Below are positions 21,726 to 59,421 of a DNA stretch of 64,000 nucleotides, piece after piece; positions within the stretch are counted from its first letter, which is position 1, and each line of letters opens with the position of its first letter. The notes under the pieces were generated by a model, which was not told the DNA's origin, ran no database searches, and saw only the letters and a list, made by a program, of their open reading frames with translations. A program made the position numbers and the translations under genes. Origin of the DNA: a virus (lineage: Duplodnaviria; Heunggongvirae; Uroviricota; Caudoviricetes); the IMG/VR virus record IMGVR_UViG_2778261223_000007, positions 12,132 through 76,131 of that record. One strand, 5' to 3'.

Positions 21726-21743
21726 TATGTTAGAAAATTAATT
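21726..21743 (-). promoter_or_regulatory. operator-like site (TATGTTAGAAAATTAATT) overlapping promoter TTGCTG-16 nt-TATGAT
   Basis: Exact core; the promoter hexamers lie at about 21744-21771 facing the icd/ant module. Confidence 0.6.
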
Positions 21744-21954
21744 TGCTGTTTCTAAATCGGAATGTATGATCTGCATCATCGACTGAAGTCATCCATTGCT
21801 GAAATTTTTAGTTGATCTTCCATGTTTTCAGGCTTATATTCATGCCGTCGTAGCAAATTCTGCGACCAGGTTTGACAGCCTGAATGTTAGTGCGGACAAC
21901 CGCAGATTTCCGATATTGCGGTATTTTTGTGTCCGTAAACCGCGTTACGCCCGA

Positions 21955-22085
21955 ATTATGGTGGGGCGTGATGGGGAGGCTTCGGCCTGCTGGTTTCACT
22001 AACGCCAGTCTGTCAACCCTGTCACGTCCTGCCACCTGTTTGACAGCGGGTAGCAGGTTGTTAAACCTGTTAGTGAGGCCGTAAC
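21955..22085 (+). ncRNA. candidate c4-type antisense/immunity RNA region
   Basis: ORF-free, hairpin-rich leader (GAGGC-TTCG-GCCT; CTGTCAA..TTGACAG) directly upstream of the icd-like ORF, as in P1 immI. Boundaries not determined. Confidence 0.25.
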
Positions 22086-22086
22086 T

Positions 22087-22311
22087 ATGGTTAATGCCAA
22101 TCCTTGCTCACGTCCAGAATTCATCTGGCGTTTCCACTCCCTGCAAAAACACTGCGATCACTTCGCAATTGCCGCAACCGAAAAAGAAGCCCGTTCTCTG
22201 ATCCCTGATCAGCATGGTGTTCTTACTGGTCGTTTCTCTACTTCCCCACAACCAAACACTAATCCCTGGTATCGCAATATTACCAATCCCGGCATTGCGG
22301 AGGCACACTGA
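22087..22311 (+). CDS. icd: Icd-like cell-division inhibitor
   Basis: 74 aa. EFIWRF..AATEKEARSL motif shared with the paralog at 58280; its stop overlaps the ant start (TGATG). Confidence 0.65.
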   Translation: MVNANPCSRPEFIWRFHSLQKHCDHFAIAATEKEARSLIPDQHGVLTGRFSTSPQPNTNPWYRNITNPGIAEAH

Positions 22312-23018
22312 TGGATATCTGCATTCTTGAAAAGCCATCAATGACCAGCATTGAGATCGCGGAGCTGGTGGGAAAACGTCATGACAATGTGAAGCGTACC
22401 ATTGAAACATTAGCCGAATCCGGCGTTATTGTTCGTCCTCAAATTGAGGATGAACCAAAAATAGATGTAATGGGGCGTTCTCGATTAATTCAGGTGTTCC
22501 GATTTAGCGACGAGCAAGGCAAACGAGACAGCATCATTGTAGTCGCACAGCTTTGTCCTGAGTTTACTGCCCGGCTGGTGGACCGCTGGCGCGAACTGGA
22601 AGAACAAGTACGCCAGCCGTTGACCGAAATAGAGATGATCGCCGCAATGGCTGCAAATGCAGTTCAGCAGCAAAAGCGGCTTCATGCTGTTGAGTCAAAG
22701 GTTAGCCAGGTCGCTGAAACCGTCGAGCAAATCAAGAAGGGCAATATGCCAGATGGCTACATTGGCTACCGCCAGCTGGCGGCGAAATGTGGCCTGACCG
22801 AAGCCAAATGCCGTAACCTGGTTAACGCTTACCGGATTCCCACCGATACACATGAGTTTTTAACTCCAGAGGGGGTATTGTCGCGTCGTTCCATCGTGGC
22901 CTTATCTCCCTTCATGAATGCTTTTAACCGGATGATGTCGGAGGCTGAACACCGAGGAAAACGCTGGTATCACCCCAAAATGGGGCAATTCCAGGTGATC
23001 GGTTGGGGAGGTGAGTGA
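22311..23018 (+). CDS. ant: antirepressor (Rha-type N-domain plus KilAC-like C-domain)
   Basis: MTSIEIAELVGKRHDNVKRTIE is the Rha-family signature; paralog of 58495-59421. Confidence 0.75.
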   Translation: MDICILEKPSMTSIEIAELVGKRHDNVKRTIETLAESGVIVRPQIEDEPKIDVMGRSRLIQVFRFSDEQGKRDSIIVVAQLCPEFTARLVDRWRELEEQVRQPLTEIEMIAAMAANAVQQQKRLHAVESKVSQVAETVEQIKKGNMPDGYIGYRQLAAKCGLTEAKCRNLVNAYRIPTDTHEFLTPEGVLSRRSIVALSPFMNAFNRMMSEAEHRGKRWYHPKMGQFQVIGWGGE

Positions 23019-23215
23019 TGGACATCATGCAGGCGGTAAAAAAAATCAGGGAAGGACAGGCTGAAGTGTGCCGCCGTAAAGCATGGAGTGTTGGTGTATG
23101 GGCCTGGCCTGATAATTACTCTACTACCGGATGGTTTTGTATTAATGGACTCCAGATCCGGGAAGTTGATTTATCGACGGCTGATATAGTCGGTAATGAT
23201 TGGATCGTGACTTGA
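23015..23215 (+). CDS. short DUF2829-like protein
   Basis: 66 aa with CRRKAW...DIVGNDWIVT. Homologous to the C-terminal 64 aa fused to Ant in the second module. Confidence 0.55.
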   Translation: MMDIMQAVKKIREGQAEVCRRKAWSVGVWAWPDNYSTTGWFCINGLQIREVDLSTADIVGNDWIVT

Positions 23216-23223
23216 AGCGTGAT

Positions 23224-23248
23224 GCCCCGGCCTGGCCGGGGCTTTTTT
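23224..23248 (+). terminator. intrinsic terminator
   Basis: GCCCCGG-CCTGG-CCGGGGC followed by T6. Confidence 0.8.
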
Positions 23249-23733
23249 CATGCCTCATTAGTTGAGGTTGCTGCGTCTCCGACTGGTAACAGAGCGGTAT
23301 TGCGTGGTTCGCCAGCAGGCCAGCGATAGCCAGACACTCTTGATGTTGGGAATGCGCGAATATTAACCGCATCCCCCTGGTTCCCACCCAGGACAAGCAG
23401 ATCGCCATTGGCGCGGCGTCCGACAACGAAGCCTACGTGCCCACCGCCTACACGGGTAAATACAACGATACATCCGTATGCCGGTGTATCTAATTTCTCG
23501 CCCCAATCCAGATAGGATTTTGCCGACTCAAATCTTGTTGAGCGGATGCCTACACGTTCCAGCATTGCACCGACAAATGCTGCGCACCACGGCGTTTCAT
23601 CGTCTTTAATTCCGCCGCGCTTGATGTCGCGCCAGAACTGAACGATTTCAGGGTTGTGTTTAGCGCCTTTTATTTCAGTCAGGCCAATGTGCTTACGGGC
23701 TTCAATTAGCCAGCGAGGTTCAATGTTTGCCAT
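23248..23733 (-). CDS. NlpC/P60-CHAP-type cell-wall hydrolase (TIGR02594-like), candidate endolysin
   Basis: 161 aa. ETPWCAAFV (catalytic Cys) and GGGHVGFVV (His); LVLGGNQGDAV. No signal or SAR sequence. A late-promoter motif lies upstream. Confidence 0.6.
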   Translation of the reverse strand: MANIEPRWLIEARKHIGLTEIKGAKHNPEIVQFWRDIKRGGIKDDETPWCAAFVGAMLERVGIRSTRFESAKSYLDWGEKLDTPAYGCIVVFTRVGGGHVGFVVGRRANGDLLVLGGNQGDAVNIRAFPTSRVSGYRWPAGEPRNTALLPVGDAATSTNEA

Positions 23734-23768
23734 ATTTTTCTCCCGGTCATGGGTTAATAAGTAGGCAA

Positions 23769-23789
23769 ACTATGGGGAGTATGTGATTT
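23769..23789 (-). promoter_or_regulatory. candidate late promoter AAATCACA-TACTCCC-CATAGT (minus strand)
   Basis: Motif copy 36 nt upstream of the hydrolase start codon. Confidence 0.5.
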
Positions 23790-23812
23790 TGACGGTAGTA
23801 TCGTCCCCCTGA

Positions 23813-23833
23813 AAATAACATTCTCCATACCCT
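23813..23833 (+). promoter_or_regulatory. candidate late promoter AAATAACA-TTCTCCA-TACCCT
   Basis: Motif copy 52 nt upstream of darB; divergent from the previous one. Confidence 0.45.
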
Positions 23834-23884
23834 CTCAACCGTACCGCATAGCGGAATTTTTTACGGTTTAGAGGGGGAAATCCT

Positions 23885-26800
23885 TTGGACAAACTACTTC
23901 ATTCAATCAGTGAAGCCTCCAGCTTAGGCGAACTGATTGAAATTGTTAGTCGGTTGCATAAATTACGTGCTGTTGCGACCTTTGGCGTCAGGAAAGCCGA
24001 TGGCGTCAGTATTCAGAAAACACGCCGGGCAGCAAATAATGCCGCAGTAAATCTTCTTAATTCCCTTCCGCCCGGCTTCGATGGGGCGAAATTAACTGAC
24101 GAACAACGTCAGATTCTTGCCGGGTATACCGGTGAAGGCGGCCTGACAGATGGTGAGGGCAGCCAATACGAATACTACACGCCACAGTTTATGGCTGAAG
24201 GTATATGGGATCTGTTTGCTGACTACGGTATTGATGGCGGGCACGTACTGGAACCATCAGCGGGCACAGGTATTTTCCAGGAGACAAAACGGCAGGGCAT
24301 GATAATGACCAGCGCGGAACTGTCTCCGATTTCTGGTCGAATAAACCAGCTTTTGCACCCGGAAGACGATGTGAATATCGGGGCGTTTGAGGCGCTGGCG
24401 GCGAAAGATGCAATGTATGACCACGCTGTTGGTAACGTACCGTTTGGTGAAGGGCGTTCCGGCGTTGCCGGGCTTGATCCGGCATATGCAAACGAGAAGA
24501 ACGTTGGCAATTACTTTGTGCTGCGCACGATCGACAAGGTTAAGCCTGGTGGGCTTATCGTATTGGTGGTGCCAAATGGCATGACCGATGGTACGAAATA
24601 TAAAAAATTGCGCGATAAAGTCAGCCGTAAAGCGGAATTTTTGGGCGCACATCGTATGCCTTCCGGTACGTTCAGCGAATCCGGTACAGATACCGTGGTG
24701 GACGTATGGGTATTGCGTAAACACCCGGAAACCTTCCTGGAGATGATCCCCGACACGGATGATTCAACACTCAAATCGGCAAACGTCCTTTGGGATACCT
24801 TCCTCAAAGGAAAATGGTTTACAACCGAAGGGAAGCGATTTGTTTACGGCGACATGGAACGTGCCAGCTTCCGCAATACCCTGGTGGTGAAAAAAGACGG
24901 TCGTGTATCCAATGAGTCGATGAAAACCGCGCTATCTCGTCGCTTTGATAGTCGCATCAATTGGGATTTGCTCGGCGTAACTACTCAGGCATGGCAGGGC
25001 GCGAAAGTGGGCGATAAACGCCTTGTAGGCGGTATCTGGCATGAGTTTGATGGTCTGAAATGGGTTAAGGACACGACAACCAAATCCTCCGCGCTTGATG
25101 TAAGTCGATATGGTGTTTCGACGTTTGGCGATCTGCAGATCGCGTTCCAGTCAACAAACGGGATTCTGGCTTTGTCATGGGACCAGATATCGGCGATCGC
25201 GTCCGACTATCCATCGGTTGTCAGTGATGAAGTGGCAGCAATGATTCGCTTTGCTGGCAAGCAGCGAGAAAAAGATAGAGAGCGCGTTATGCGCGGTGCG
25301 CTGATAGGGCAGTTGATCAACAAGGCACTTGATTTGCGTAACCTGGGGGTGAACGTTGATGACAAACTGGCAGATGCATCCCGCCTGGCGGCAGCAGAAG
25401 TTGCGAAGTATGGACCACCACACGCCATTAAGCTGAATGGGCTTGCTGAAGCTGGCGCTAAAAACTGGATGACGTTCACTGGCAATGTGAAACAGGATGG
25501 TTCCACTTCTGACCTTCTGGCAGGGCGACTTGATGTAACGGATGGTGCTGCCGGTATTGACTTTACACGTCCTGAACAAGTGATAGCACATCTTTTCAGT
25601 GATGTAGCCCTTAATCCTATAACGCTGGGAGACTTTCGTGAGGCGTTTGCTGGTGAACTGCCAGAGGACGACGACGCGGCCCTTGAATACCTGGCGAAAT
25701 TTGATGATATCGCTATTGATGGGTATGGCTGTCTGCTGCCGATGGACCGCGCCACCAGCGGCGATGTTGCAACCAAAACAGCACTGCTGGTGGGCTGGCG
25801 TGATGCGTCAACAGGTGAGCAGAAAGCGAACTTTGAGCGTCAGTTGGCGAAAATCGAAGAGAAACGCATTTTCACGCCACTAAATAAAGTCACCGTTAAT
25901 CTGAATGCCCGCTGGCTGGATCGCCGCTTGATAAAAGAGTTCTTGGCAGAGCAGGGCTATGACGAGTTTAAGTACACTGAACCTGATCTGAAGGTCGTCG
26001 ATGGCATTCTGGTATCTCCGGACGATTACGAAGGTAAGGACGGGGTATTTACCGGCTATCAGCTACGAACCGTAAACGGCAAAAACGGGAATGAGTTCAA
26101 GAAGGCCAACAATAAAGACGGCTTCCTGAACCAGTTAGAAAACTACCTGAACGGTGTTAAACCGCGTGGGCAGAACGCTAACGAGTACCTGGATAAAATT
26201 GCTCAACTGGAAGTTAGCTTTAACGACTGGTTACGCACCCACCCGCAGGCGGATCAGATAGCCCGTGACTATAACGACGCATTCAATGGTTTCATTCCGT
26301 TCACACATTCTGACGCACCGCTTGGCCTGGAAGGGATTAGTGGAAAGCGCATTCCTCTGACTTATCAGAATGAAGAAGTTCGGCGCTTGTCAGAAGATGG
26401 GCGTGGCATCATGGGATTTGGTACCGGGCTGGGTAAAACCACGACCGCGCTTGCGCTTGAGGCGTATAACTTCGAAACAGGTCGCACTAAACGCACGTGT
26501 ATTGTTGTTCCGAAGGCGGTTTATCAGAACTGGTATCACGAGGCACAGAGTTTCTACAGTGCTGATGCCTTCGCCAATATGATGTTTATCGGTTTGGATG
26601 AAGTTCGTGATGACAGCGGAAATATTCTGACCGCGCCGGTGCTTGATGAAAATGGCGAACCACGCCTCGACAGTAACGGGCAGCCTCTTACCAGAAATGT
26701 TGTGAAAGAGTCCTCCAGCGCCGTTATCGTTCAGCGTATGAACATGATCCCGTCGTCAAATTGGCGAACGGTCATCATGACAAAAGAACAATTCGCGTCT

Positions 26801-29800
26801 ATCCCGCTACGAGAAAAAACCATCGAGGAGAACTCACAGCAAGCTGTCTTTAATGCTGTGGAAATGGGGCGTCTTGACCTGGCGTCCGGTAAACACCGTG
26901 ATGCGCAGAAGAAGAACAAGATTAAGGATCAGGCCGCGAATACCGGTACAACGAAGAAGCAAAATATCCCGTACTTTGAGGATATGAACTTCGATAGCGT
27001 GATTGCCGACGAGGGGCATAACTACCGCAACTCCTTTAATGCCGGGCGTGAAGCGGGACAACTGGCATATTTGCCTAACCCGGCAGTATCCAAGATGGCC
27101 CGCGACATGGCTGTAAAAGCTGCGTACATGATGAAACGCAACAACGGGCGTGGTGTAGTCATGCTGACGGCAACACCGCTGGTGAACAGTCCGATTGATG
27201 CCTTCAACATGCTGTCTACTGTCATTCCGCAGGAAGAGTGGATGCGTATGGGCATCATTACGCCTGATGATTTCGTTCGTGTGTTTGGCAAAACAGCCAC
27301 AGTTCAGGTCCAGAAAATTTCCGGGGAAGTGGAAGAGAAGCAGGGGCTGGTGGGCTTCCAGAACCTTGACGGCCTGCGTGGTATTTTCCATCGTTGGGCC
27401 ACTCTGAAGACTGCTGCAGATGTCGGAGCGACGGTTAAAATTCCCGACATCATCGAGAACACCTTGCAGATCCCGATGACAGGGGAGCAGGAGACTGCTT
27501 ATGAAGAGCTTCGTAAGCGTGCTCAGGAGTTAAGTCGCAATGATGAGCTGACAGTCGATGAAAACGGGCATATCACTAACGACAAACCGGATGATTTCAT
27601 CTTCTCCATCATCCGTGACATGGATAAGGTTGCTATAGACCCGGATCTGTATGCCAGTGCGATTACATTCCAGTTCCCCGTTGAGCTTGCAGACCAGGTA
27701 AAAGCTATTGCTGATGCCTTGCCAAAAGTAGCTGGCGGTAAAGTGGCAGATGATGTTGATGAGGCCGAGGAAGACGGCGCTGGCGGGCTGGTCAGTACGC
27801 GTACCAGCAAGGTAGTGAAGACCGCTTTTAGTGAACATCCGACGCATGTTGAAATACGTGCCAGCATTGAACTGGAAGCTGAAATACTGAAGGCCATTGC
27901 GGCTGCCGGCATTGATATGCAGCAGGTATCGCACCCCATCCCGCCGAAGTATGCCGCGCTGATCGAAAATCTTCGTGAAGGTCTGAAGAACGGTAAGCAG
28001 ATCGTCTTTATTGATGAAAAAGCCCAGCACCAGAAGCTGCGCCGTATTATCGCCAGTGCACTGCAAATGCCGGAGCAGGAGATTGGCATTATCAATGCGA
28101 CGACAGTTAGCCAGGCTGGTGGCATCAAACTGAAGAAGGTGAATAAGCCGACCGAACCTACTCCAAACAAAAACGGTGAATACAAAGAAGGGGCATGGGA
28201 AACCTACTACAGCAAACTTGCCCAATATGAGGATTATCTCTCCGCTAAAAATGATGCTGGCCTTGAGGGCATGGAAGGTATTGCCGCCGACTATAACGAA
28301 GGTCGCACGCGCATCATAATCTGTAACAAGAAGGCTGAAGTAGGTATTAACCTGCACATCGGGACAACCGATATCCACCACCTGACACTACCCTGGACAC
28401 CAGCCAGTATCGACCAACGAAATGGGCGCGGTGCGCGCGTAGGTTCACCGCAAGAAAAGGTCAATGTTCACTACTATTGTGGCAAAGGCACATTCGATGA
28501 CTTCCGTCTGGATACGCTTAAACGTAAGAAAGACTGGATCAAGATGGTGATGACCTCCGACATGTCAGAGATCGCCAATGGTGATGCGGATGATGCTGAT
28601 GAACGCGCCATTATGCTGGCGGCAAACCCGGAAGAACGCCGCGCAATCATGGCTCGCCAGGCGCAAGAGCGTGAAGAACGTCTGAAACTGAAAGCACAGC
28701 GCGAGGCCAACAATGCTCTCGATATCTACCTGAAAGCGGCAAACGCCGCCGGAAAAGATATCGGCATGATGGAGACAGAACTGAAAAGCGCGATGGAACA
28801 GATAGAGTATTACCAGCGAAATCTTGACGACCTGATAAAAGCGGGTACGAACAGGAATGGGCAAAAATACGCGCTTGAGCAGTTGAGTAGCTACAGAAAA
28901 CGTGCGCGGGTGCTGCGGTTTGCGATCACCAGGGCAAAAGACGCGGATACCATAATGAAACGCTCTCGTGGTGATGTGGAGCGCGCTATTAAGTCTGGTG
29001 TGCTGGATATCAGTATCGATGTTATTCAGAACCCACAGGAATATATGCGCACTGACAAGAATATCCTGTTGCATAAAGGTAGTTATTACCGTGCAGTCAT
29101 TGATGATCGCGAAACAACAGCGATTGTCCGGGTGGAAAAAATTGACGGTGAAAAAGCACAATACCTCTGCCGTATCGCCTGGCTGGATAGAGCAAGTCGT
29201 TACGCTCGAGCACCGGGGTCAATCGTTACATTGCCGTTTGACTCTGTGATTGAAGCGGTAACTTTTGAAGAGGGGGTAGCTGAATCGCGCGCAACGGCTG
29301 CGCGAGGTGTTCAGTGCCACCAGCTATCAACAATACTTACTCGCGATCAGTTCTATGATGCTATTCGCAATGGGGTAATGAATGTTATTGCTGGTAAACC
29401 TGGTAATGCATGGGGCGGTGGGTCAGCTATTAAATACTGGGCATATCGCACAGATGATGGTCAGATCGCGCTGTCATCGGCCTATGATGGCGTGATAGGC
29501 CAAAAAATCGGGCGAGCATCGGATATAGCACCTGAGCGATGGATATATCCTGATGGCAACGACGAGGCGCTGAAGCGTGAAGTGGCAAAAATACAAGCCA
29601 GTGATAACCCGCTGAATATCGTGGACGGCGAGGGATTCCTCCAGGCATTGTATGGGTATGATTACATCCAGGGAATGCAGGCATGGGGCGCACAGGCAAC
29701 GATGGATGATGTTGCCCAGGAGTTCGAAAACTGGATGGCTGGGCGTGGTCTGTCAGGTCGTTCGCTTAATAAAGTCACTTCTGAAGATATTCTTAGCTTG

Positions 29801-30721
29801 TTCCGCAAACCGTCCGGAGAAGGTCTGGAATCATTCTGGAGGACCGTGCTGGCATACCGTTTATTCCAGGGCAGGATGAAAGCCTTTAGCAATATCGATG
29901 ATATTGAACGGATGTTTAATCAGGTCAAGATCGCGAAAATTAAGGCGAAGATCGAAAAAACACGTTCTGCGCTGGTGGCCTGGCGCGATGCATTGTTTGA
30001 GCAATATAAATCACTCAGTGATGCAGATGGATGGGCGGCATTGGAACAGCTGGCGAATAATGGGGTAGATGGAGCGAAACTCGCCATTGTTCAGGCTGAT
30101 AACCCCCTGGAATCACCGGCAGCACAGTGGATTAAGGTGGGGGCTGTCATCAATGCATTTGATGAAAAACACATTAGTAAGGACGATTTTGCTGATGCTG
30201 TTTCTGTTAATCGCCTGGTAGAAATGGCTACCCGCCGCGCCCGTGAGTTGAAAGACGGCGACTATGTGAATGAGTTGCCGGATACGCTCAAATCGGCAAC
30301 GTGGCAGGACTATGTATCGCTGAAAAACGGCGGGGCCACTGAATCAGAGATCGCGGAAAGGCTTGAGCAGGCTGAAAGCAAAAGAGAAGAGCAGGCGGCA
30401 GTGGCTGAAGCCAGAGCTGATGAAGCGGCGAATGATGACTATATCATTGTGGTTAATGATAAGCCGATTCGCGCTAAGGCGCGTGTTCGCGGGCGCTGGT
30501 GGAGCGTCAGCGAGGACGTTGGCGCGGTTTATCTCATTGCCGACCAACCAGGTTCCTCGACAATACGGAACGCCAAAGACGCGATTAAGAAGATTGGCGG
30601 GCGTTTCTGGAATTTTGAAGCAAACCCGGTTGCTGATGTGAACTTTGACCGTCCTGCATGGATGGTATCTACGCGTTACTCGGTAGATGAACTGCGTAAA
30701 ATAATCGCCGATGCGGCCTAA
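23885..30721 (+). CDS. darB: DarB antirestriction protein (N6-adenine methyltransferase fused to an SNF2/DEAD helicase)
   Basis: 2278 aa, TTG start after GAGGGGG. Motifs: VLEPSAGTGIF and GNVPFG (methyltransferase I/IV), GFGTGLGKTTT (Walker A), ADEGHNYRN (DEAH-like), QRNGRGARVGS (helicase motif VI). Confidence 0.9.
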   Translation: MDKLLHSISEASSLGELIEIVSRLHKLRAVATFGVRKADGVSIQKTRRAANNAAVNLLNSLPPGFDGAKLTDEQRQILAGYTGEGGLTDGEGSQYEYYTPQFMAEGIWDLFADYGIDGGHVLEPSAGTGIFQETKRQGMIMTSAELSPISGRINQLLHPEDDVNIGAFEALAAKDAMYDHAVGNVPFGEGRSGVAGLDPAYANEKNVGNYFVLRTIDKVKPGGLIVLVVPNGMTDGTKYKKLRDKVSRKAEFLGAHRMPSGTFSESGTDTVVDVWVLRKHPETFLEMIPDTDDSTLKSANVLWDTFLKGKWFTTEGKRFVYGDMERASFRNTLVVKKDGRVSNESMKTALSRRFDSRINWDLLGVTTQAWQGAKVGDKRLVGGIWHEFDGLKWVKDTTTKSSALDVSRYGVSTFGDLQIAFQSTNGILALSWDQISAIASDYPSVVSDEVAAMIRFAGKQREKDRERVMRGALIGQLINKALDLRNLGVNVDDKLADASRLAAAEVAKYGPPHAIKLNGLAEAGAKNWMTFTGNVKQDGSTSDLLAGRLDVTDGAAGIDFTRPEQVIAHLFSDVALNPITLGDFREAFAGELPEDDDAALEYLAKFDDIAIDGYGCLLPMDRATSGDVATKTALLVGWRDASTGEQKANFERQLAKIEEKRIFTPLNKVTVNLNARWLDRRLIKEFLAEQGYDEFKYTEPDLKVVDGILVSPDDYEGKDGVFTGYQLRTVNGKNGNEFKKANNKDGFLNQLENYLNGVKPRGQNANEYLDKIAQLEVSFNDWLRTHPQADQIARDYNDAFNGFIPFTHSDAPLGLEGISGKRIPLTYQNEEVRRLSEDGRGIMGFGTGLGKTTTALALEAYNFETGRTKRTCIVVPKAVYQNWYHEAQSFYSADAFANMMFIGLDEVRDDSGNILTAPVLDENGEPRLDSNGQPLTRNVVKESSSAVIVQRMNMIPSSNWRTVIMTKEQFASIPLREKTIEENSQQAVFNAVEMGRLDLASGKHRDAQKKNKIKDQAANTGTTKKQNIPYFEDMNFDSVIADEGHNYRNSFNAGREAGQLAYLPNPAVSKMARDMAVKAAYMMKRNNGRGVVMLTATPLVNSPIDAFNMLSTVIPQEEWMRMGIITPDDFVRVFGKTATVQVQKISGEVEEKQGLVGFQNLDGLRGIFHRWATLKTAADVGATVKIPDIIENTLQIPMTGEQETAYEELRKRAQELSRNDELTVDENGHITNDKPDDFIFSIIRDMDKVAIDPDLYASAITFQFPVELADQVKAIADALPKVAGGKVADDVDEAEEDGAGGLVSTRTSKVVKTAFSEHPTHVEIRASIELEAEILKAIAAAGIDMQQVSHPIPPKYAALIENLREGLKNGKQIVFIDEKAQHQKLRRIIASALQMPEQEIGIINATTVSQAGGIKLKKVNKPTEPTPNKNGEYKEGAWETYYSKLAQYEDYLSAKNDAGLEGMEGIAADYNEGRTRIIICNKKAEVGINLHIGTTDIHHLTLPWTPASIDQRNGRGARVGSPQEKVNVHYYCGKGTFDDFRLDTLKRKKDWIKMVMTSDMSEIANGDADDADERAIMLAANPEERRAIMARQAQEREERLKLKAQREANNALDIYLKAANAAGKDIGMMETELKSAMEQIEYYQRNLDDLIKAGTNRNGQKYALEQLSSYRKRARVLRFAITRAKDADTIMKRSRGDVERAIKSGVLDISIDVIQNPQEYMRTDKNILLHKGSYYRAVIDDRETTAIVRVEKIDGEKAQYLCRIAWLDRASRYARAPGSIVTLPFDSVIEAVTFEEGVAESRATAARGVQCHQLSTILTRDQFYDAIRNGVMNVIAGKPGNAWGGGSAIKYWAYRTDDGQIALSSAYDGVIGQKIGRASDIAPERWIYPDGNDEALKREVAKIQASDNPLNIVDGEGFLQALYGYDYIQGMQAWGAQATMDDVAQEFENWMAGRGLSGRSLNKVTSEDILSLFRKPSGEGLESFWRTVLAYRLFQGRMKAFSNIDDIERMFNQVKIAKIKAKIEKTRSALVAWRDALFEQYKSLSDADGWAALEQLANNGVDGAKLAIVQADNPLESPAAQWIKVGAVINAFDEKHISKDDFADAVSVNRLVEMATRRARELKDGDYVNELPDTLKSATWQDYVSLKNGGATESEIAERLEQAESKREEQAAVAEARADEAANDDYIIVVNDKPIRAKARVRGRWWSVSEDVGAVYLIADQPGSSTIRNAKDAIKKIGGRFWNFEANPVADVNFDRPAWMVSTRYSVDELRKIIADAA

Positions 30722-35153: not shown

Positions 35154-35229
35154 GATGGTGTAGCTCAGCGGTTAGAGCGGTTGACTGTTAATCAACGGGT
35201 CGATGGTTCAAATCCATCCACCATCGCCA
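35154..35229 (+). tRNA. tRNA-Asn (GUU)
   Basis: Manual cloverleaf: acceptor GATGGTG/CACCATC, D stem GCTC/GAGC, anticodon loop CTGTTAA, T arm GATGG-TTCAAAT-CCATC, encoded CCA. Confidence 0.9.
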
Positions 35230-35231: not shown

Positions 35232-35307
35232 GCCGGTTTAGCTCAGTTGGTAGAGCGCCTGCCTTGTAAGCAGGATGTCAGCGGTTCGAGTCCGTTAATC
35301 GGCACCA
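35232..35307 (+). tRNA. tRNA-Thr (UGU)
   Basis: Acceptor GCCGGTT/AATCGGC, anticodon loop CTTGTAA, T loop TTCGAGT, encoded CCA. Starts 2 nt after tRNA-Asn. Confidence 0.9.
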
Positions 35308-36844: not shown

Positions 36845-36920
36845 GGCCCCTTAGCTCAGTGGTTAGAGCTGGCGACTCATAATCGCACGGTCACCGGTTC
36901 AAGTCCGGTAGGGGCCACCA
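36845..36920 (+). tRNA. tRNA-Ile2 (CAU, lysidine type)
   Basis: GGCCCCTTAGCTCAGTGGTTAGAGC..CTCATAA.. is nearly identical in its 5' half to E. coli ileX as I remember it. Encoded CCA. Confidence 0.85.
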
Positions 36921-52373: not shown

Positions 52374-52386
52374 TGCGTTGTTCCCA

Positions 52387-53456: not shown

Positions 53457-53480
53457 ATTTTGAGTGCGTAAATGATTTGA

Positions 53481-54173
53481 TCAGACTTTAAGCTGCCCTC
53501 CCTTCACCTGCATTAGCGTCAGATTTCCGCAAAAAACCGCGCCCGTGTCTATGTAGTGCTGATTCCAGTATGCTTTTGGTCTTCGTACCGGTGTGTGCCC
53601 AAAGATAAAGCGATCTGCGCCTGTGATTTCTCCACCAATGCCATCTATCGAATCACCGACGCGACTGCGCGACCAGACAACATCAAAAAGCGACACATCC
53701 TTACCGAACTGGTACTCTCCACCTGGATAGTCGGCATGGGCTATAACGATAGTTTCATGCCCGGTGTTCAACTCAATGATATATGGCAGACGCTTTACCA
53801 GCTCCACCAGCGCCCAGGCTAATATTTCCTGATCAGTGTCCAGCATGAAGAACCATTGTCCGCCATTCATTAGCCAGTTATTCACGTTGCCATCAGGACT
53901 TAACGCATCAAGCATCAACCGCTCATGGTTCCCCATTACTGCCCTGAACCAGGGCATCTGCAATAGTTCCAGACATTCGACATTTTCAGTACCGCGATCG
54001 ATAAGGTCGCCAACAGATATCAGTAAATCCTGCGCCGGGTCAAAATCCACACGATGGAGTTCGGACATCAGTCTGGTGTAGCAACCATGCAGATCACCAA
54101 CAACCCATATGTTTCTGTAGCCAGAACCATCAATACGGCTATATAAATTCACTTCATGCATAGTCTGGATCAT
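53481..54173 (-). CDS. pap: Ser/Thr protein phosphatase (lambda PPase-like metallophosphoesterase)
   Basis: GDLHG, GDLIDRG and GNHE motifs. ATG 54173 follows GGGAGAAGG and overlaps the upstream stop (the ORF track starts at 54203). Confidence 0.85.
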
Positions 54174-54481
54174 GCGGCAACCTTCTCCCGCAGCCAGATA
54201 CAAACTGGACCATCTTCAGTGTCATGAATAGAGCCAACAAACCAGCCTTCACCCTCTGGTCGCTCCGGTTCCCAGGCGGCAATATCGGGACCAGCTGCGT
54301 CCAGATCAAAATCATCTTCATCCATACTGCGAATAGTCCACTGAAGATTATTTTCCTTCATCCAGGCGTCAAATTCCTCAGTGGAAATATATTCACGACC
54401 TGCGCAAAACTTCTCATACTCCGGATGTGTCCAGCAGCCATATTCATCACGTTCTACCGGCATTTCTTTAATGATGCTCAC
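54170..54481 (-). CDS. acidic hypothetical protein
   Basis: 103 aa within the overlapping gene chain. Confidence 0.45.
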
Positions 54482-54702
54482 TCTTCATCCTCCAAGTCGG
54501 CAACGGCCTCCATCACATCAGAACCGCGAATAACCGCAAAAGCACGGCAGGCCATTTCAAACACCTGTTGTTCTTGCGGATGCGGTGACTCCCAATACTT
54601 AAAACCAGGTCGATGCTCGTAACCCATCATGGAATAAAAATCGCCAGCAAGTTCAATCGCGGCATCAACAAGTTCGCGATTTGTCATCGTCTGTTCTGTC
54701 AT
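54478..54702 (-). CDS. hypothetical protein
   Basis: 74 aa within the overlapping gene chain. Confidence 0.4.
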   Translation of the reverse strand: MTEQTMTNRELVDAAIELAGDFYSMMGYEHRPGFKYWESPHPQEQQVFEMACRAFAVIRGSDVMEAVADLEDEE

Positions 54703-54973
54703 TTGGTTTCTCCTGTCTGAACATCACTATCATCAGGTCGCCTTTTATCGCTATTCTGGCTGTTGTGCCTGGTTCAATGCGGCTAAGTTCAAATGCGTCA
54801 TAGAACGCTTCTAATGCCTTCTGGCGTAGTTCCTGTTTGCGCCGTTTTTTCCACTCTTTTAGGAAAATGGAACCCAGCCATCGCCAGGTACGGGACATGA
54901 TGTAAAGCCAACCGAGAAGTGCCAGACCGGTATTTAGGGCCGTATCGATCGTTATCGTGGTGTCGATATTCAC
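54665..54973 (-). CDS. membrane protein
   Basis: 102 aa with TM helix GLALLGWLYIM; GTGA overlap with the upstream gene. Confidence 0.4.
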   Translation of the reverse strand: MNIDTTITIDTALNTGLALLGWLYIMSRTWRWLGSIFLKEWKKRRKQELRQKALEAFYDAFELSRIEPGTTARIAIKGDLMIVMFRQEKPNDRTDDDKSRTC

Positions 54974-55218
54974 TGTGGTGGCTCCTGCTTTTCTGCCTTT
55001 AATACCATGCGAGAACCATCATCCAGCTCCCAATTAATTTCACCGCCTTCAGCCATGACTAGATGCCAAACGAGTTGTGCGGCCTCGTTGGTTACATCAC
55101 GACCGCGATCATTGCCGACACGACGTTTTGTTCCATCCCCTAAGTCACGCATTTTTGCCAACACGATGGTTTTTGATAGCGGTGAAAAACCAAGCTGTAG
55201 TCGTGCGGTATTACTCAC
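54970..55218 (-). CDS. hypothetical protein
   Basis: 82 aa from GTG 55218, 6 nt after GGAGG (the ORF track starts at 55251). Confidence 0.4.
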   Translation of the reverse strand: MSNTARLQLGFSPLSKTIVLAKMRDLGDGTKRRVGNDRGRDVTNEAAQLVWHLVMAEGGEINWELDDGSRMVLKAEKQEPPQ

Positions 55219-55703
55219 TGTTTGCCTCCTTTGCGAAGCTGTTCCGCCCATTCTTCAAGGGATTTCTCCGCATATTCACCGGACAGGCCATCAATCGGGT
55301 GCGGTTCATTAGCCAACTCTTCTTTCGCTGACAGAATCATGCGCGTAACGTCGAAAACTTCACGTAAAGACTTATTGATAAATCCGTGGTTGAAAGCAGC
55401 AGCAAGACGGCTTGCGGTATAGTTAATCCCCTCGTTGCGAGCCGCCGCACGAATTTCAGCCAGAAAAGCATCGGTGGCTGGAGTTTCGCTGTGGTGCAGG
55501 GCATCGTTGATAATCATTGCAGCAACTCCGGCCTGACCTGCATCCGTGACCGACACATGCTCAAGAGTTACAGCCATTGCATGTTTCAGCCCAGCATTCT
55601 CCGCCGCCAGCGCAGCACACGCTTTCTCAAGTCGGGAAATTTCCGTTACATACTCAGCGTTACGCTCTGCCAGTTGTGCGGGCGTTAAACCTTCAGACTT
55701 CAT
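55215..55703 (-). CDS. hypothetical early protein
   Basis: 162 aa, helical. Confidence 0.45.
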   Translation of the reverse strand: MKSEGLTPAQLAERNAEYVTEISRLEKACAALAAENAGLKHAMAVTLEHVSVTDAGQAGVAAMIINDALHHSETPATDAFLAEIRAAARNEGINYTASRLAAAFNHGFINKSLREVFDVTRMILSAKEELANEPHPIDGLSGEYAEKSLEEWAEQLRKGGKQ

Positions 55704-56010
55704 ACACTCTCCTTTCGAAATAAACGTACTGATTAATCATGCCTAGGGGCATTTCGAGTTTTTCCGCGATCTCACGGCGGGGAACACCACACCGATGAAG
55801 CTGCCGTGCCAGTTCTATATCGCCCTGCCGGTATTTGGCTGACGGGTGAAAGTCTCCTTTCAGAATCATGCAGATCCGCAGTTGCCGCGCTTTGGTTCTG
55901 ACAGCACTACCGGTACGCCCGATCAGCCTCCCAATACTCTCGACTGTCATAGTCCCGGCGCACTGGCGGAGTATCATGATTTCTGCCCTTCCCCATCCCC
56001 GCCAGCTCAC
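55693..56010 (-). CDS. HTH protein
   Basis: 105 aa with two HTH-like segments (VESIGRLIGRTGSAVRTKARQL; REIAEKLEMPLGMINQYV). Confidence 0.45.
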   Translation of the reverse strand: MSWRGWGRAEIMILRQCAGTMTVESIGRLIGRTGSAVRTKARQLRICMILKGDFHPSAKYRQGDIELARQLHRCGVPRREIAEKLEMPLGMINQYVYFERRVYEV

Positions 56011-56618
56011 GCAGAACTCCTTCTAACCAAAAGCACGCCATCTTCAGAAACAACGTTGCAGGACTTCAGGTAATTCATTGCCTCTTTCGGTAATGGATTC
56101 TTTGGATCGGCGTTTGCCAGGGATTTCGATAACCTCATGATAAATTTGATCATTACCTTCTGGCGGAGCTTGTGCTCATGAGATAAAGACAGGTAATAGG
56201 AAATGGTATGGGCTAAACGCTCACGAAGCTGTTCTGTGCCGTGATATACAGCAGCGATATCACACAGTGCATTGACCAGTTCCCGGTAAATATGCGGAGC
56301 AACCTGGCATTCAATGTTGGTTGGTGACTCATAAATTACAGTCAGCCCCAGCTTTTCAGCCAGCGCGTGCTCTGCACGAGCACCAATCGATTCCTCCCAT
56401 CGATTGAGCAAGTAGATCGCATCAGCAGAACGCACCATTGCCAGGCAAATATCCATGTATTCACTCTGACAAAGGCCACCAGGTAACACAGCTGGATTCA
56501 GAACGATATGCCCTTCAGCCATCAGCTCGCTCGCTTTCGCATTAAACGCAGCACGGTTGTAATCTGGATAACCAGTCATCGGCCCCGCGATGTAAATTTT
56601 CAAAACACGTTTCACCAT
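56007..56618 (-). CDS. DUF4406 (nucleoside 2-deoxyribosyltransferase-like) domain fused to an Ea22-type C-terminal segment
   Basis: KIYIAGPMTGYPDYNRAAFN...NPA...LLNRWEESIGARAEHALAEKLGL is the DUF4406 pattern. ATG 56618 overlaps the upstream stop (the ORF track starts at 56645). Confidence 0.65.
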   Translation of the reverse strand: MVKRVLKIYIAGPMTGYPDYNRAAFNAKASELMAEGHIVLNPAVLPGGLCQSEYMDICLAMVRSADAIYLLNRWEESIGARAEHALAEKLGLTVIYESPTNIECQVAPHIYRELVNALCDIAAVYHGTEQLRERLAHTISYYLSLSHEHKLRQKVMIKFIMRLSKSLANADPKNPLPKEAMNYLKSCNVVSEDGVLLVRRSSA

Positions 56619-56770
56619 CAAAATTTCCCCAAAATCGTGACGCAAAACATAAGCACTGCGAAAAGCTCAATACCAAGCTCAAGTAGCGCCAACGCCCCGA
56701 AAAACAACACATAGAACAGGCCAATCTCATTCACAGATGGCTGGTGGATCGCACTTAAAGCTATAAGCAT
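56618..56770 (-). CDS. 50-aa hydrophobic peptide, first ORF of the leftward early operon
   Basis: MLIALSAIHQPSVNEIGLFYVLFFGALALLELGIELFAVLMFCVTILGKF. GGAGGA SD upstream. Below the ORF-track cutoff. Confidence 0.4.
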   Translation of the reverse strand: MLIALSAIHQPSVNEIGLFYVLFFGALALLELGIELFAVLMFCVTILGKF

Positions 56771-56810
56771 CATGTCCTCCAAACAGTTATCAGGAATGAT
56801 ATTAATGTTT

Positions 56811-56843
56811 TGTGTTAGAAAATCAATTTTGAATATCTAATCA
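56811..56843. promoter_or_regulatory. bipartite operator-like pair TGTGTTAGAAAATCAATTTT / GAATATCTAATCA between divergent operons
   Basis: Left half has the exact core and the right half is a TCTAATC variant. P1 ref is likewise controlled by a bipartite C1 operator. Confidence 0.55.
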
Positions 56844-56890
56844 TTTTGATCAATCATAGAAAAATCGCTGAAAAGTAAGAGGCAGCCATC

Positions 56891-57469
56891 ATGCAGAAAC
56901 AGAGCTATTGGGAGAAACAGAGACAAAAAGCCATGCAAAAATTGGCTGACCCAGCCTGGCGAGAGGAACAAAGGGCAAAGTGCCTTCAACAAGCTCAACG
57001 CCAGCAGCAGCGAGCGAGAGAAAAAGCCGCATCGCCTGAATATCGGCAAAAGAAAATTGAAAAAGCAAAGCAATATGAACAGCGGAGAAAAGATAAAGCT
57101 GTATCCGCTCCGTCCAAAAAAACACGCACGTCACGCGGCCTGAAAGGCAGATCACTCACAGCCGATGAACGCCGGATACAGACCGCTATCGGTGCTCTCC
57201 CCTGCATTGCCTGCCATATTCACGGGCAACATAGCCCAGTGGTATCCCTGCACCATATCTTCGGGAGAACGGCAGAGAACGCGCATAAATATGTCCTCCC
57301 TTTGTGTAAATGGCACCACCAGTACGCAGCGCCAGCCGAGGTCCGAGAACAATATCCCTGGCTGGTCCCTGTTCATGCTGACGGAAAAATAGGCGGAAAA
57401 GCAGATTTCATGCGGCACAATGCCGATGAAATGACGTTGTATCAGATGGCGATTGAATTGATAAATTAG
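56891..57469 (+). CDS. ref: Ref, RecA-dependent HNH endonuclease
   Basis: 192 aa. ADPAWREEQ..SRGLKGRSLTADERRIQTAIGALPCIACHIHG..VSLHHI..LPLCKWHHQYAAPAEVREQYPWLVPVHADG closely parallels P1 Ref from memory. Confidence 0.85.
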   Translation: MQKQSYWEKQRQKAMQKLADPAWREEQRAKCLQQAQRQQQRAREKAASPEYRQKKIEKAKQYEQRRKDKAVSAPSKKTRTSRGLKGRSLTADERRIQTAIGALPCIACHIHGQHSPVVSLHHIFGRTAENAHKYVLPLCKWHHQYAAPAEVREQYPWLVPVHADGKIGGKADFMRHNADEMTLYQMAIELIN

Positions 57470-57480
57470 TTTTCTAACAT
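57463..57480 (+). promoter_or_regulatory. operator-like site AAATTAGTTTTCTAACAT, followed by promoter TTGAAT..TACATT
   Basis: Exact core overlapping the ref stop; heads the second immunity-I-like module. Confidence 0.6.
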
Positions 57481-57714
57481 TTTAAGTTGAATTGTAAATT
57501 TCTCCGATGTACATTCACTACCGATTGGCACACCGGTCAACTTTTTGAGACAAACTGTTTAGTTTTTCGTATTATTGCCGCCGCTATACCTATGGCGGTG
57601 CAATATAGGTGGCTGAAAAGCCCCCGTTGACTCACGGTGTTCCAGCCTTTATTGCGCCGCCACCAGACCGTGGAACAGTCGATGGCGGCTCCGAAAGCAA
57701 GGAGTCACTACACT

Positions 57715-57804
57715 ATGAACAGCTACTGTCTTTTCCCATCACTCGTTGTCCGCCACTCACGCGATAATCTGCATTCTTTACTCGCGCTGGGGGTGTCAAA
57801 ATGA
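57715..57804 (+). CDS. 29-codon leader ORF (weak call)
   Basis: AAGGAG SD upstream of the ATG; its stop overlaps the next ATG (ATGA). Confidence 0.25.
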   Translation: MNSYCLFPSLVVRHSRDNLHSLLALGVSK

Positions 57805-57968
57805 CCGTTCGTTACCTCAACTTTCAAATCCAGAACATCACTGGCGGTTGCTATGACTGGTTTGTCACTCTCGGAAAAGAAGTGATCACCGGGAAGCTGG
57901 ATGAAGTGAAAACTAAAGCAATGGCCTACGCCTGCAAGCAAGCCCGGAAGAAATCCGCCAAAGCATAA
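57801..57968 (+). CDS. 55-aa basic protein
   Basis: MTVRYLNFQIQNITGGCYDWFVTLGKEVITGKLDEVKTKAMAYACKQARKKSAKA. Translationally coupled to the leader ORF. Below the ORF-track cutoff. Confidence 0.4.
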   Translation: MTVRYLNFQIQNITGGCYDWFVTLGKEVITGKLDEVKTKAMAYACKQARKKSAKA

Positions 57969-58073
57969 AATACTGACTGTTGCGCCCTGGCATTATCGTG
58001 GGGTATATTTCTACGGCACCTTAGAAAAACGGGTGCCGGGATTGGAACCCCGGATAATGTCAAAGGCGACACA

Positions 58074-58094
58074 GACGCCGAAAGCGTCTTTTTT
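58074..58094 (+). terminator. intrinsic terminator
   Basis: GACGC-CGAAA-GCGTC followed by T6. Confidence 0.65.
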
Positions 58095-58109
58095 GTGTCA
58101 TGCCATCGC

Positions 58110-58275
58110 ACAGCCATACGTAGCGTTTAGCTCAGAGATCAATGGTAGTGCTGGCTGGGCTGCCGAAAGGCAGGCCGGTTCCCTTTGACGCCGGTAGTTC
58201 CAACCCAGTCAGTGCTACCGCCATTGAGATTGGAACCTCACGCGGTAGCTCCTTAACTTAGTCAAAGGAGGCTGC
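58110..58275 (+). ncRNA. candidate c4-type RNA region with tRNA-like 5' sequence
   Basis: GCGTTTAGCTCAGAG (tRNA D-arm-like), a CTGCC-GAAA-GGCAG hairpin, and CTCCTT..AAGGAG pairing that sequesters the icd SD. Boundaries unknown. Confidence 0.25.
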
Positions 58276-58279
58276 CAAT

Positions 58280-58495
58280 ATGGCTACTATCCCTACCCCA
58301 ACTCATTCTGAATTTATCTGGCGTTTCTATTCCTGCCAAAAACACCTGTATATCTGCGTCATGGCTGCTACCGAAGCAGAGGCGCGCTCATACCTTCCCG
58401 AAGAACCCTGCATTTTTGCTGCTCGCTTCACTCTTGATGCGATGGAGATCCTCAATTACTGGAATCTGCCGATGAACTGCGTGGAGGCGCACTGA
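58280..58495 (+). CDS. icd: Icd-like cell-division inhibitor, second copy
   Basis: 71 aa. SEFIWRFYSCQKH..AATEAEARSYLP; the stop overlaps the ant start. Confidence 0.65.
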   Translation: MATIPTPTHSEFIWRFYSCQKHLYICVMAATEAEARSYLPEEPCIFAARFTLDAMEILNYWNLPMNCVEAH

Positions 58496-59421
58496 TGAAT
58501 CTGTCCATCTCTCAAAAAGCGACAATGACCAGCATTGAGATCGCGGAACTGGTAGGTAAGCGCCCTGATAACGTTAAACGCACCATTGAACACCTGGCGG
58601 AACGGGGCGTAATATCTTTTCCTCAAATTGAGGAAAAGCCCACCGCAGGCCGCCCGGCGAGCTATTACGTCTTTGAAGGCGAACAAGGCAAGCGTGACAG
58701 TATCATTGTCGTCGCACAGCTTTCTCCCGAATTTACCGCCCGGCTGGTGGACCGCTGGCGCGAACTGGAGAATGCCCGGGTACAGTTAAAATCAAAAGCC
58801 GAAATCCTGGCTGAAATGGCGCAAATGCATCTTGAGCATGAACGCCGGATCAACGCCGTTAATGCCCAGGTAGCCGAAGTATCGGCACAAGTGTCCAAAG
58901 TCGCTGAAACCGTCGAGCAAATCAAGAAAGGCAATATTCCGGAAGGCTACATTGGCTACCGCCAGCTGGCGGCGAAATGTGGCCTGACTGAAGCCAAATG
59001 CCGAAACCTGGTTAACGCTTACCGGATTCCCACCGATACGCATGAGTTTTTAACTCCCGATGGTTTGCTTGCGCAACGCTCCATTGTGGCCCTGGCCCCC
59101 TTCCGGAAAGCCTTTAAGCAGGTGATGTCGGAGGCAGAACCACGCAATAAACGCTGGTATCATCCAAAGATGGGGATGTTTCAGGCAATCCACCATCCTG
59201 TGCCTGAAAGTCCAAAGGCAAACCTGTCGTTGCATACCGCCAGAGAGAGGATTAAAACAGGCTATGCAATCGTATGCCGTCGAGCATCCTGGCCTGAAGG
59301 TGTATGGGTGTGGCCCGAAGGTGGATCACGAAAGCACTGGCGCACTATCCGGGATGGGAAAATCCATGCGATTGATTTAGCTCCAGAGGATGTTGTTGCT
59401 ACGGACTGGATTGTTAGTTAA
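58495..59421 (+). CDS. ant: antirepressor, second copy, with a fused C-terminal DUF2829-like domain
   Basis: 308 aa. Rha signature MTSIEIAELVGKRPDNVKRTIE; C-terminus CRRASWPEGVW...DVVATDWIVS. Confidence 0.75.
   Translation: MNLSISQKATMTSIEIAELVGKRPDNVKRTIEHLAERGVISFPQIEEKPTAGRPASYYVFEGEQGKRDSIIVVAQLSPEFTARLVDRWRELENARVQLKSKAEILAEMAQMHLEHERRINAVNAQVAEVSAQVSKVAETVEQIKKGNIPEGYIGYRQLAAKCGLTEAKCRNLVNAYRIPTDTHEFLTPDGLLAQRSIVALAPFRKAFKQVMSEAEPRNKRWYHPKMGMFQAIHHPVPESPKANLSLHTARERIKTGYAIVCRRASWPEGVWVWPEGGSRKHWRTIRDGKIHAIDLAPEDVVATDWIVS

Follow-up and report, generated by a model that had tools for sequence, protein, structure and literature searches.

Two C4-gated modules in a D6-like phage-plasmid

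The 64,000-nucleotide (nt) stretch analyzed here (positions 12,132 to 76,131 of IMG/VR record IMGVR_UViG_2778261223_000007; the whole stretch is called the window below) belongs to a D6-like phage-plasmid, a relative of P1 within the P1 family, and carries two operons that resemble the immunity I (immI) region of P1 and P7. Both lie on the + strand, module 1 at 21726-23215 and module 2 at 57463-59421, and they are 35.7 kb apart, which confirms an earlier note on this DNA that had described two immunity-I-like modules in direct orientation at a distance of about 36 kb. Judged by sequence, they are also paralogous units of the immunity I type, as that note had proposed, because C4 RNAs recognized by Rfam, Icd-like open reading frames (ORFs), homologous Rha-type genes, and terminator hairpins are found in both.

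In near-identity searches, phage D6 matched the window at 93.8% across module 1 (21650-23300) and at 97.6% across module 2 (57400-59500), and plasmid pYU39_89 (CP011430) of Salmonella Typhimurium ST213 matched module 2 and its surroundings at 99.9%. Both regions also match many ~90-kb non-mobilizable plasmids of Escherichia coli and Salmonella. D6 and pYU39_89 have both modules in the same order and orientation as the window, at 94-100% identity. In the GenBank record of D6 (MF356679), orf19/orf18/orf17 and orf83/orf82 are labelled "inhibition of cell division" and "putative anti-repressor"; the presence of two modules in D6-like elements is therefore already known, the D6 authors' recognition of them being taken here from these GenBank notes.

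Module 1 begins with a predicted C1-type operator-like site on the - strand (AAATTAATTTTCTAACAT, 21727-21744), a perfect match to an 18-bp motif in the same place as Oc4/Op51 in P1. All further parts are on the + strand. A promoter-like site identified by promoter scan (TTGATC, 17-nt spacer, TATATT; 21812-21840) aligns with the P1 promoter P1c4 (P51b) and is followed by upstream C4 targets at 21872-21893 (a1, 21872-21878, TTGACAG; b1, 21886-21893, GTTAGTGC), a 77-nt C4 antisense RNA at 21960-22036 (b', 21996-22003; a', 22010-22016), and downstream targets at 22040-22076 (a2, 22040-22046; b2, 22069-22076), with b2 lying over the icd Shine-Dalgarno sequence GAGG. Three coding sequences follow, namely icd1 (22087-22311; 74 amino acids [aa] in length, NCBIfam phage_ICD_like), ant1 (22311-23018), which encodes a 235-aa Rha/Roi-type regulator in the "ant" position, and a 65-aa ORF that is a remote Tad2-like/DUF2829 candidate (23018-23215). 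The starts of ant1 and of the 65-aa ORF overlap the preceding stops in TGATG sequences (22309-22313 and 23016-23020), and an intrinsic terminator recognized by terminator scan, a GC hairpin with six T residues (23224-23248), closes the module.

Downstream of ref, a second predicted operator-like site with a perfect motif match (57463-57480, + strand) precedes module 2, and a 55-aa ORF (57801-57968) lies between this ref-proximal operator and an IsrK-like leader RNA. This RNA (58016-58094) has a candidate IsrK-type promoter, recognized in the sequence (TTGCGC, 18-nt spacer, TATATT; 57980-58009), from which transcription would start near 58016; it contains a1 (58042-58048, TTGGAAC) and b1 (58059-58066, GTCAAAGG), and the terminator scan places an intrinsic terminator at its end (58073-58089, then T residues). 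The C4 antisense RNA (58138-58225; b', 58182-58189, CCUUUGAC; a', 58197-58203, GUUCCAA) is followed by downstream targets at 58230-58268 (a2, 58230-58236; b2, 58261-58268), where b2 again lies over a Shine-Dalgarno sequence, AAGGAGG of icd2. The icd2 gene (58280-58495; 71 aa, NCBIfam phage_ICD_like) and ant2 (58495-59421; 308 aa) overlap at 58493-58497 in the same TGATG manner; residues 1-232 of Ant2 form the Rha/Roi-type regulator, and after a linker of ~12 aa a Tad2-like tail occupies residues 244-308 (59227-59418). A GC hairpin with a weak T tract follows (59430-59448) and is 92% identical over 26 nt to the module 1 terminator. From the IsrK-like promoter onward, all of these parts are on the + strand.

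Antisense RNA switches with distinct specificities

Rfam searches placed C4 RNAs (RF01695; gathering threshold, 45 bits) at 21954-22039 with 68.8 bits and at 58138-58225 with 77.1 bits. The upstream elements of the two modules belong to different forms: module 1 matches the c4-a1b1 model (21834-21886, 54.4 bits; gathering threshold, 46.7), which is without a terminator, and the terminated IsrK form (RF01394; 58016-58094, 62.7 bits; gathering threshold, 50) is present in module 2 only. The C4 RNA of module 1 can pair through its junction, CUGUCAA, with TTGACAG at 21872 and 22040 and through its loop, UCACUAAC, with GTTAGTG at 21886 and 22069, the latter site entering the icd Shine-Dalgarno sequence. 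The corresponding pairs in module 2 are GUUCCAA with TTGGAAC (58042 and 58230) and CCUUUGAC with GTCAAAGG (58059 and 58261). In both modules, the pairing thus consists of exact complements of 7-8 nt at the expected positions, and no complementarity was found between the C4 RNA of one module and the targets of the other. Duplex energies of full-length RNAs did not discriminate, as the calculation unfolds everything, and exact complementarity and covariation were used instead. As their recognition sequences differ, the two C4 RNAs are orthogonal, and each would gate its own operon only.

The RNA part of module 1 is that of P1. The stretch from about 21890 to 22107, which takes in b1, c4, a2, b2, and the start of icd, matches the annotated immI leader of P1 at 100%; a1 is likewise the P1 a1, and the 77-nt C4 is 100% identical to P1 c4. 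Only scattered differences from P1 are found from there back to the promoter (to 21827, in the P1c4/P51b homologue at 21812-21840), and further upstream the P1 operator and the P2c4 promoter are replaced. For sites of the a2/b2 type, the P1 record gives "repression of icd ant translation."

Both switches vary among relatives. Three module 1 specificity types occur among 10 sequences: TTGACAG with GTTAGTG in the window and P1; TTGACAG with ACTTACG in D6, pYU39_89, and CP148392; and TTGAAGG with ACGAATG in CP066033. For module 2, five combinations were found among nine sequences, namely TTGGAAC with GTCAAAGG in the window, TTGAGAC with GCAAAAGG in D6, TTGGAAC with GCAAAAGG in MN101851, and, paired with GTCAAAGG, TTGAGAC in RCS47 and TTGGTCT in CP148392. 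In all of these sequences, without exception, a change in the loop goes with matching changes in its two targets. Such covariation is not readily explained unless pairing is under selection; it speaks for the function of both switches and parallels the P1/P7 heteroimmunity. The window differs from D6 and pYU39_89 in combining a P1-type module 1 specificity and the cassette A with a pYU39-type module 2, and D6 has, relative to the window, another a/b specificity in each switch and another N-terminal cassette at each locus.

Module 1 is closest to the immunity I region of P1 and P7 (c4-icd-ant1/2), with which it shares c4, a1/b1/a2/b2, and the downstream promoter at ~100%, an Icd homologue, and the operator-then-promoter layout; its specificity variants, in which the loops vary together with their targets, are reminiscent of the heteroimmunity of P1 and P7. 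Unlike P1/P7, it has a Rha/Roi-type effector with no similarity to P1 Ant1/2 or KilA, a D6-type operator, repL upstream rather than downstream of the module, and a small Tad2-like ORF after the effector.

Module 2 resembles the isrK-STnc1160-orf45-anrP region of Gifsy-1 (PMC4825925) and the CI/seqA-seqC region of P4, with a terminated IsrK-family RNA, a C4-family RNA downstream of it, and a small ORF overlapping an antirepressor-like gene; the likeness is one of layout. In Gifsy-1, translation of the antirepressor-like gene rises about 140-fold when the short IsrK RNA is supplied in trans, an effect exerted via coupling to orf45, and IsrK and STnc1160 were likened by the authors to P4 seqA and CI RNA (PMC4825925). 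Unlike the Gifsy-1 region, module 2 resides on a P1-family plasmid prophage, its small ORF is a clear Icd homologue, and its effector carries a fused extra domain. A second isrK-C4-icd-ant unit is also present in RCS47, between pacB and c1 (FO818745, 103405-105004). From the IsrK start into icd, it is ~97% identical to module 2, and a compensatory change of a1, a', and a2 is nearly the sole difference. The RCS47 unit differs from module 2 in its genomic position and in having an unrelated ant of 371 aa. Its existence shows that second C4 modules recur across the P1 family.

The 39-aa "ash family protein" coding sequence that RefSeq annotates in relatives (58142-58261) is probably not a gene. 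It lies almost wholly inside the C4 RNA and is probably a protein call on an RNA gene.

Icd and Ant proteins

The two small ORFs exceed the threshold of the Icd-like model NF033153 (phage_ICD_like; 25 bits) with 40.3 bits for Icd1 and 49.5 bits for Icd2, and are 61% (E value, 7e-26) and 63% identical to P1 Icd, respectively, and 45% identical to each other (E value, 7e-16). Ant1 and Ant2 share 66% protein identity (E value, 9e-111). The earlier description of these proteins as Rha/KilAC antirepressors is upheld for the Rha part: the N-terminal region matches Pfam Phage_pRha (PF09669; gathering threshold, 29.9 bits) with 37.2 bits in Ant1 and 30.7 bits in Ant2. The KilAC part was not recovered, as Pfam gave no match to a KilAC/ANT domain for the whole Ant proteins at E values up to 0.01 or for the C-terminal part at E values up to 10. 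BLASTP comparison of Ant1 and Ant2 with P1 Ant1 and KilA likewise gave no similarity (E values above 0.9), nor was there any to the RCS47 ant product. Residues 1-232 of Ant2 are 55-68% identical to ~230-aa proteins of Stx phages, Klebsiella phages, and phiP27, which are annotated as Roi, DNA-binding, or antirepressor proteins. Ant1 and Ant2 are thus of the Rha/Roi type and not P1 Ant proteins. Given these ~230-aa homologues in other phages, the usual architecture is the unfused 235-aa form, and the fusion in module 2 appears to be derived.

The AlphaFold model of Ant2 (predicted local distance difference test score [pLDDT], 69.5) has a winged helix (residues 1-76), a long helix (78-144), and a second domain of strand-helix-helix-strand form (152-230). 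With this model, Foldseek returned generic winged-helix matches only (E values above 0.04), and a search of Protein Data Bank (PDB) sequences with Ant2 gave no significant match.

Recurrent gene conversion between ant1 and ant2

Over their full length, ant1 and ant2 are 67% identical at the nucleotide level, which is less than the ~80% estimated by eye in the earlier note. Pairwise alignment and windowed identity showed a strong mosaic with a distinct patch, not uniform divergence: identity ranges from ~20% to 97% across 60-nt windows, and the BLAST-alignable parts have 75% and 86% identity. The patch, which had been put at about seven differences in 159 positions, has eight in a global alignment of 22710-22868 with 58900-59058, or seven without the last base. 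This is beyond chance, as the best 159-column window in 5,000 column shuffles of the ant1/ant2 alignment contained at most 131 matches versus the 151 observed. The longest exact shared run, of 44 bp (from 22755 and 58945), falls within the patch. Between the two copies in the window, synonymous divergence (dS) is 0.18 in the patch versus 1.6-2.4 elsewhere (~1.6 in the flank), and 2 of the 53 patch codons differ at the protein level. In the Ant2 model, the patch corresponds to the last part of the long helix together with the helix-turn-helix core of the domain that follows it.

The identical run of roughly 30 bp with a Chi site that had been assigned to the patch does exist as a 32-mer in both copies (GCCCGGCTGGTGGACCGCTGGCGCGAACTGGA; 22569-22600 and 58738-58769), but it lies outside the patch, 110 bp upstream, inside a second conserved block. 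Its Chi site was rejected as a special mark of the 32-mer, since Chi (GCTGGTGG) occurs 36 times in the window (for example, at 22364, 22574, and 58743) versus ~1.6 expected, with 24 sites on the + strand and 12 on the - strand (a 2:1 bias) versus ~0.8 expected per strand.

Allelic variation was compared among nine module 1 and eight module 2 alleles from the window, D6, pYU39_89, and six other plasmids. Across the 163 columns of the patch zone, there were no fixed differences between the paralogs and 10 shared polymorphisms; in the flanks, by contrast, there were 71 and 30 fixed differences and no shared polymorphisms. Two exchange zones can be delimited in this way on the + strand of ant1. 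Zone 1 (22339-22600; partner, 58523-58769) spans the Rha domain, and zone 2 (22708-22870; partner, 58898-59060) is the patch. In both, fixed differences are all but absent and shared polymorphisms are numerous, and icd, the coiled-coil segment (22601-22707), and everything after 22871 are specific to their locus. Zone 1 includes a hypervariable cassette (~22370-22505) and a conserved end block (22508-22602) that contains the 32-mer and its Chi site.

The wing of the Rha domain (22370-22505 and 58555-58665) is itself hypervariable, with at least four types at module 1 and three at module 2. These cassettes occur among close plasmids with almost identical flanks.

Individual plasmids retain tracts of such exchange. 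In AP018804, the module 2 patch has the haplotype of its own module 1, with 4 differences versus 11-17 to other module 2 alleles, and in CP142945, the left half of the module 1 patch is of the module 2 haplotype. A natural hybrid, found with a chimeric query, is present at the module 1 locus of ptetA (NZ_CP047013): the gene is of the module 1 type at its two ends, and between about 22591 and 22850 it shares 93-100% identity with module 2 and carries the coiled-coil segment specific to that module, with breakpoints within the two conserved blocks, the left one in exchange zone 1. Together with the lack of fixed patch differences and the shared polymorphisms, the tracts in these three plasmids support ectopic gene conversion between ant1 and ant2 that is recurrent and runs in both directions. 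Conversion had been suggested previously as a recent event; dS, shared polymorphisms, and tracts bear out the conversion itself, but the eight differing sites and the recurrent exchange do not fit the word "recent."

Could the near-identity of the patch instead be due to selection on the nucleotides, as a site in cis or an RNA, or to constraint on the protein, without any exchange of DNA? The patch does code for a conserved helix-turn-helix core that is nearly unchanged between the two proteins. However, constraint predicts low diversity within a locus, and the patch is the most polymorphic part of module 1, with 5.3% diversity among alleles versus 0-0.8% in the flanks; simple sequence constraint is therefore ruled out. 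In addition, the patch variants are common to both loci as haplotype blocks, synonymous divergence is about 10 times below that of the flanks, and the ptetA hybrid brings module-2-specific flanking sequence into the module 1 locus. This explanation is largely refuted, and we regard it as extremely improbable.

A different source for the shared segments would be an external pool, with each locus recombining separately with Roi/Rha genes of phages or co-resident plasmids. Homologues of the Roi/Rha type are widespread (537 phage records and more than 5,000 proteins), the N-terminal cassettes vary within a locus, none of the sampled cassettes was identical between the two loci, and patch identity within a genome is not systematically above that between genomes. 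Yet near-identity searches of the phage collection hit the patch only in D6, and about 110 of the 113 plasmids matched by patch-spanning queries in PLSDB (72,556 plasmids) carry two copies. The AP018804 patch, moreover, matches the other module of the same plasmid, and the tract in ptetA is 93-100% identical to module 2 of D6-like elements. We give the external source little chance as the main explanation and favor conversion between the two loci, in which exchange between co-resident relatives could also occur, given that patches are no closer within than between genomes.

Operator-like sites and the extent of module 2

The 18-bp motif (AAATTARTTTTCTAACAT) occurs at nine sites with up to three mismatches in the window (20521, 21727, 32672, 42789, 44199, 53424, 53438, 56812, and 57463) versus 0.11 expected, with 53424 and 53438 forming a divergent, overlapping pair. 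The positions parallel those of C1 operators in P1, before repL and module 1, near the c1 start, after cre, and flanking ref, and there is one perfect copy at each module (21727 and 57463). C1 may control the modules through this motif.

Module 2 had been described as starting at 57463 with an ORF-free leader. The operator-like site at this position is present, but neither the left edge nor, for this module, the absence of ORFs can be maintained. The 55-aa ORF is conserved, has only a weak DUF3319 match, and persists where module 2 is absent. In pTB423 (NZ_CP034790), 57945-61154 is missing, with ~1 kb of other DNA in its place, and the operator at 57463 and the 55-aa ORF are retained; they thus form a separable unit, and the core of module 2 starts near 57980, probably with its own IsrK-type promoter. 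The homology of RCS47 to module 2 also starts near 57980-58015, and the candidate -35 element at 57980 is conserved in RCS47 amid diverged surroundings; the consensus promoter scan gave no match there. The core is thus an accessory cassette that is absent from some relatives.

The region 57945-61154, comprising the module 2 core and downstream genes, is variable.

These absences raise the question of whether one of the two, with module 2 the more plausible candidate, is a duplicate that is dispensable or decaying and has no role in the lysis-lysogeny decision. In addition to the loss of the whole core in pTB423, a clean 1,328-bp deletion in ptetA (58435-59762) removes ant2, and most RefSeq (NZ_) gene tables in PLSDB are without an ant2 protein accession, although some have one. 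On the other hand, the icd and ant frames are intact in all nine module 1 and all eight module 2 alleles, including those of the window, in which neither module has decayed. The non-functional module that the earlier note had named as grounds for rejecting its proposal was thus not seen in these frames. Both copies are retained in nearly all plasmids found with the patch-spanning queries, the compensatory changes in the switch of module 2 imply that pairing is still under selection, and being accessory does not make an element non-functional. It seems very unlikely to us that module 2 is such a duplicate, and two working operons remain our preferred reading.

The 65-aa ORF and the fused tail of Ant2

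The 65-aa ORF of module 1 (23018-23215) is 40% identical to residues 244-308 of Ant2 (E value, 1e-17). A DUF2829 tail, separate in module 1 and fused in module 2, had been proposed; the split and fused arrangement is borne out and represents a fission/fusion pair, but the assignment to DUF2829 stays below threshold. Pfam Tad2-like (PF11195, formerly DUF2829) is the top match of both the 65-aa ORF (15.1 bits; E value, 0.034) and the Ant2 tail (11.9 bits; E value, 0.35), below the 25-bit cut-off, with matches that span nearly the full profile. Tad2 is itself a DUF2829 protein (bioRxiv 10.1101/2023.05.01.538930), and the 65-aa ORF and the Ant2 tail share RRxxW...DWIV motifs with the Tad2/DUF2829/AcrIIA7 family.

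The family of the 65-aa ORF is tiny, with three homologues found by word-indexed search and seven by exhaustive HMMER search of 1.84 billion representatives. One of these homologues (P0008, 37.4 bits) passes the Tad2-like threshold and another (P0005, 23.9 bits) nearly does so, which provides a transitive link. In a profile search of PDB sequences, three of the four weak matches were solved structures of the Tad2-like family (two of AcrIIA7 and one of SPO1 Tad2, Gp34.65). Unlike that family, the domain is shorter (65 aa), scores below threshold, and has a predicted fold that did not match Tad2. We therefore treat it as a remote Tad2-like candidate rather than a demonstrated member, and any anti-defense role of the tail would follow from this likeness.

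A model for two orthogonal, gene-exchanging operons

Taken together, we consider it likely that the window derives from a D6-like phage-plasmid with two paralogous C4-gated operons, which are orthogonal to each other and whose regulator genes exchange sequence by recurrent ectopic conversion. The leader transcript of each operon would consist of the upstream decoys a1/b1, the C4 RNA, and a2/b2, with b2 over the icd ribosome-binding site. Following the P1 paradigm, C4 would be processed from the leader and pair with a2/b2, blocking translation of icd and, through the stop/start overlap, of the downstream regulator along with it. If C4 were outcompeted or transcription increased, Icd (a cell-division inhibitor), the Rha/Roi-type regulator, and the small Tad2-like protein or domain would be made together. 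In module 1, the RNA part of P1 itself (100%) is joined to a non-P1 effector, and module 2 is of the IsrK/Gifsy-1 type, with a1/b1 on a short terminated RNA. The regulator genes would swap the Rha-domain region and the 163-bp patch of the second domain, with breakpoints in the two conserved blocks.

Several observations weigh against parts of this model. The effectors are unlike P1 Ant1/Ant2 or KilA, and an antirepressor activity of Ant1 and Ant2 is suggested by gene position and database names. The operator-like site of module 2 lies 520 bp upstream, in the separable unit, so that control of this module by C1 is uncertain. The two patches of one genome, with 4-21 differences, are on average no more alike than patches of different genomes. 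The Tad2-like scores of the 65-aa ORF and the tail do not reach the Pfam threshold, and Foldseek with the model of the 65-aa protein (pLDDT, 77.5) gave no Tad2 match.

With the conserved junction blocks, the Rha cassette and the patch may move between the operons and between related plasmids, and the loop/target specificity of C4 may drift independently in each operon, giving new combinations of switch and regulator specificity. The 65-aa ORF or fused tail may in turn be an anti-defense module that is released only when the switch opens. That the two loci form a cassette-exchange system and that, separately, the tail is a signal-sequestering anti-defense module is, as a joint reading, rather unlikely in our estimation.

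D6-like plasmid prophages are common in E. coli and Salmonella, and the modules are ordinary features of them that had been noted before. What is new is incremental and consists of the orthogonal specificities, the covariation in populations, the mapped conversion tracts, the natural hybrid, and the Roi-type effector. These offer clean, testable predictions on heteroimmunity and on the role of a second module in phage-plasmids that are spreading among clinical and food isolates.

The interval between the modules

The earlier note had also proposed that the repeats could serve as a substrate for deleting or inverting the DNA between the modules. Inversion by these repeats is impossible, since they are direct. 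As for deletion, a chimeric query for the junction of the left part of module 1 with the right part of module 2 had no full-length match among the 72,556 plasmids of PLSDB. According to the D6 annotation, the interval contains darB, morphogenesis genes, tRNAs, lpa, pacAB, c1, cre/rox, phd/doc, and ref; its deletion would cost the element the master repressor c1 and the addiction module phd/doc, as well as lpa, pacAB, and cre/rox. Even the 74-75-kb variants retain both modules, and in CP050999 these are still ~38.7 kb apart, with the missing DNA of this plasmid lying elsewhere.

Other genes near the modules include a peptidoglycan-hydrolase gene (CHAP/TIGR02594; 23248-23733, - strand) that is convergent with module 1 and has the terminator region in common with it. 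Between the modules, as in D6 and P1, are a 2278-aa DarB-like SNF2/methyltransferase ORF (23885-30721) and three tRNA genes (35154-35226, 35232-35304, and 36845-36917).

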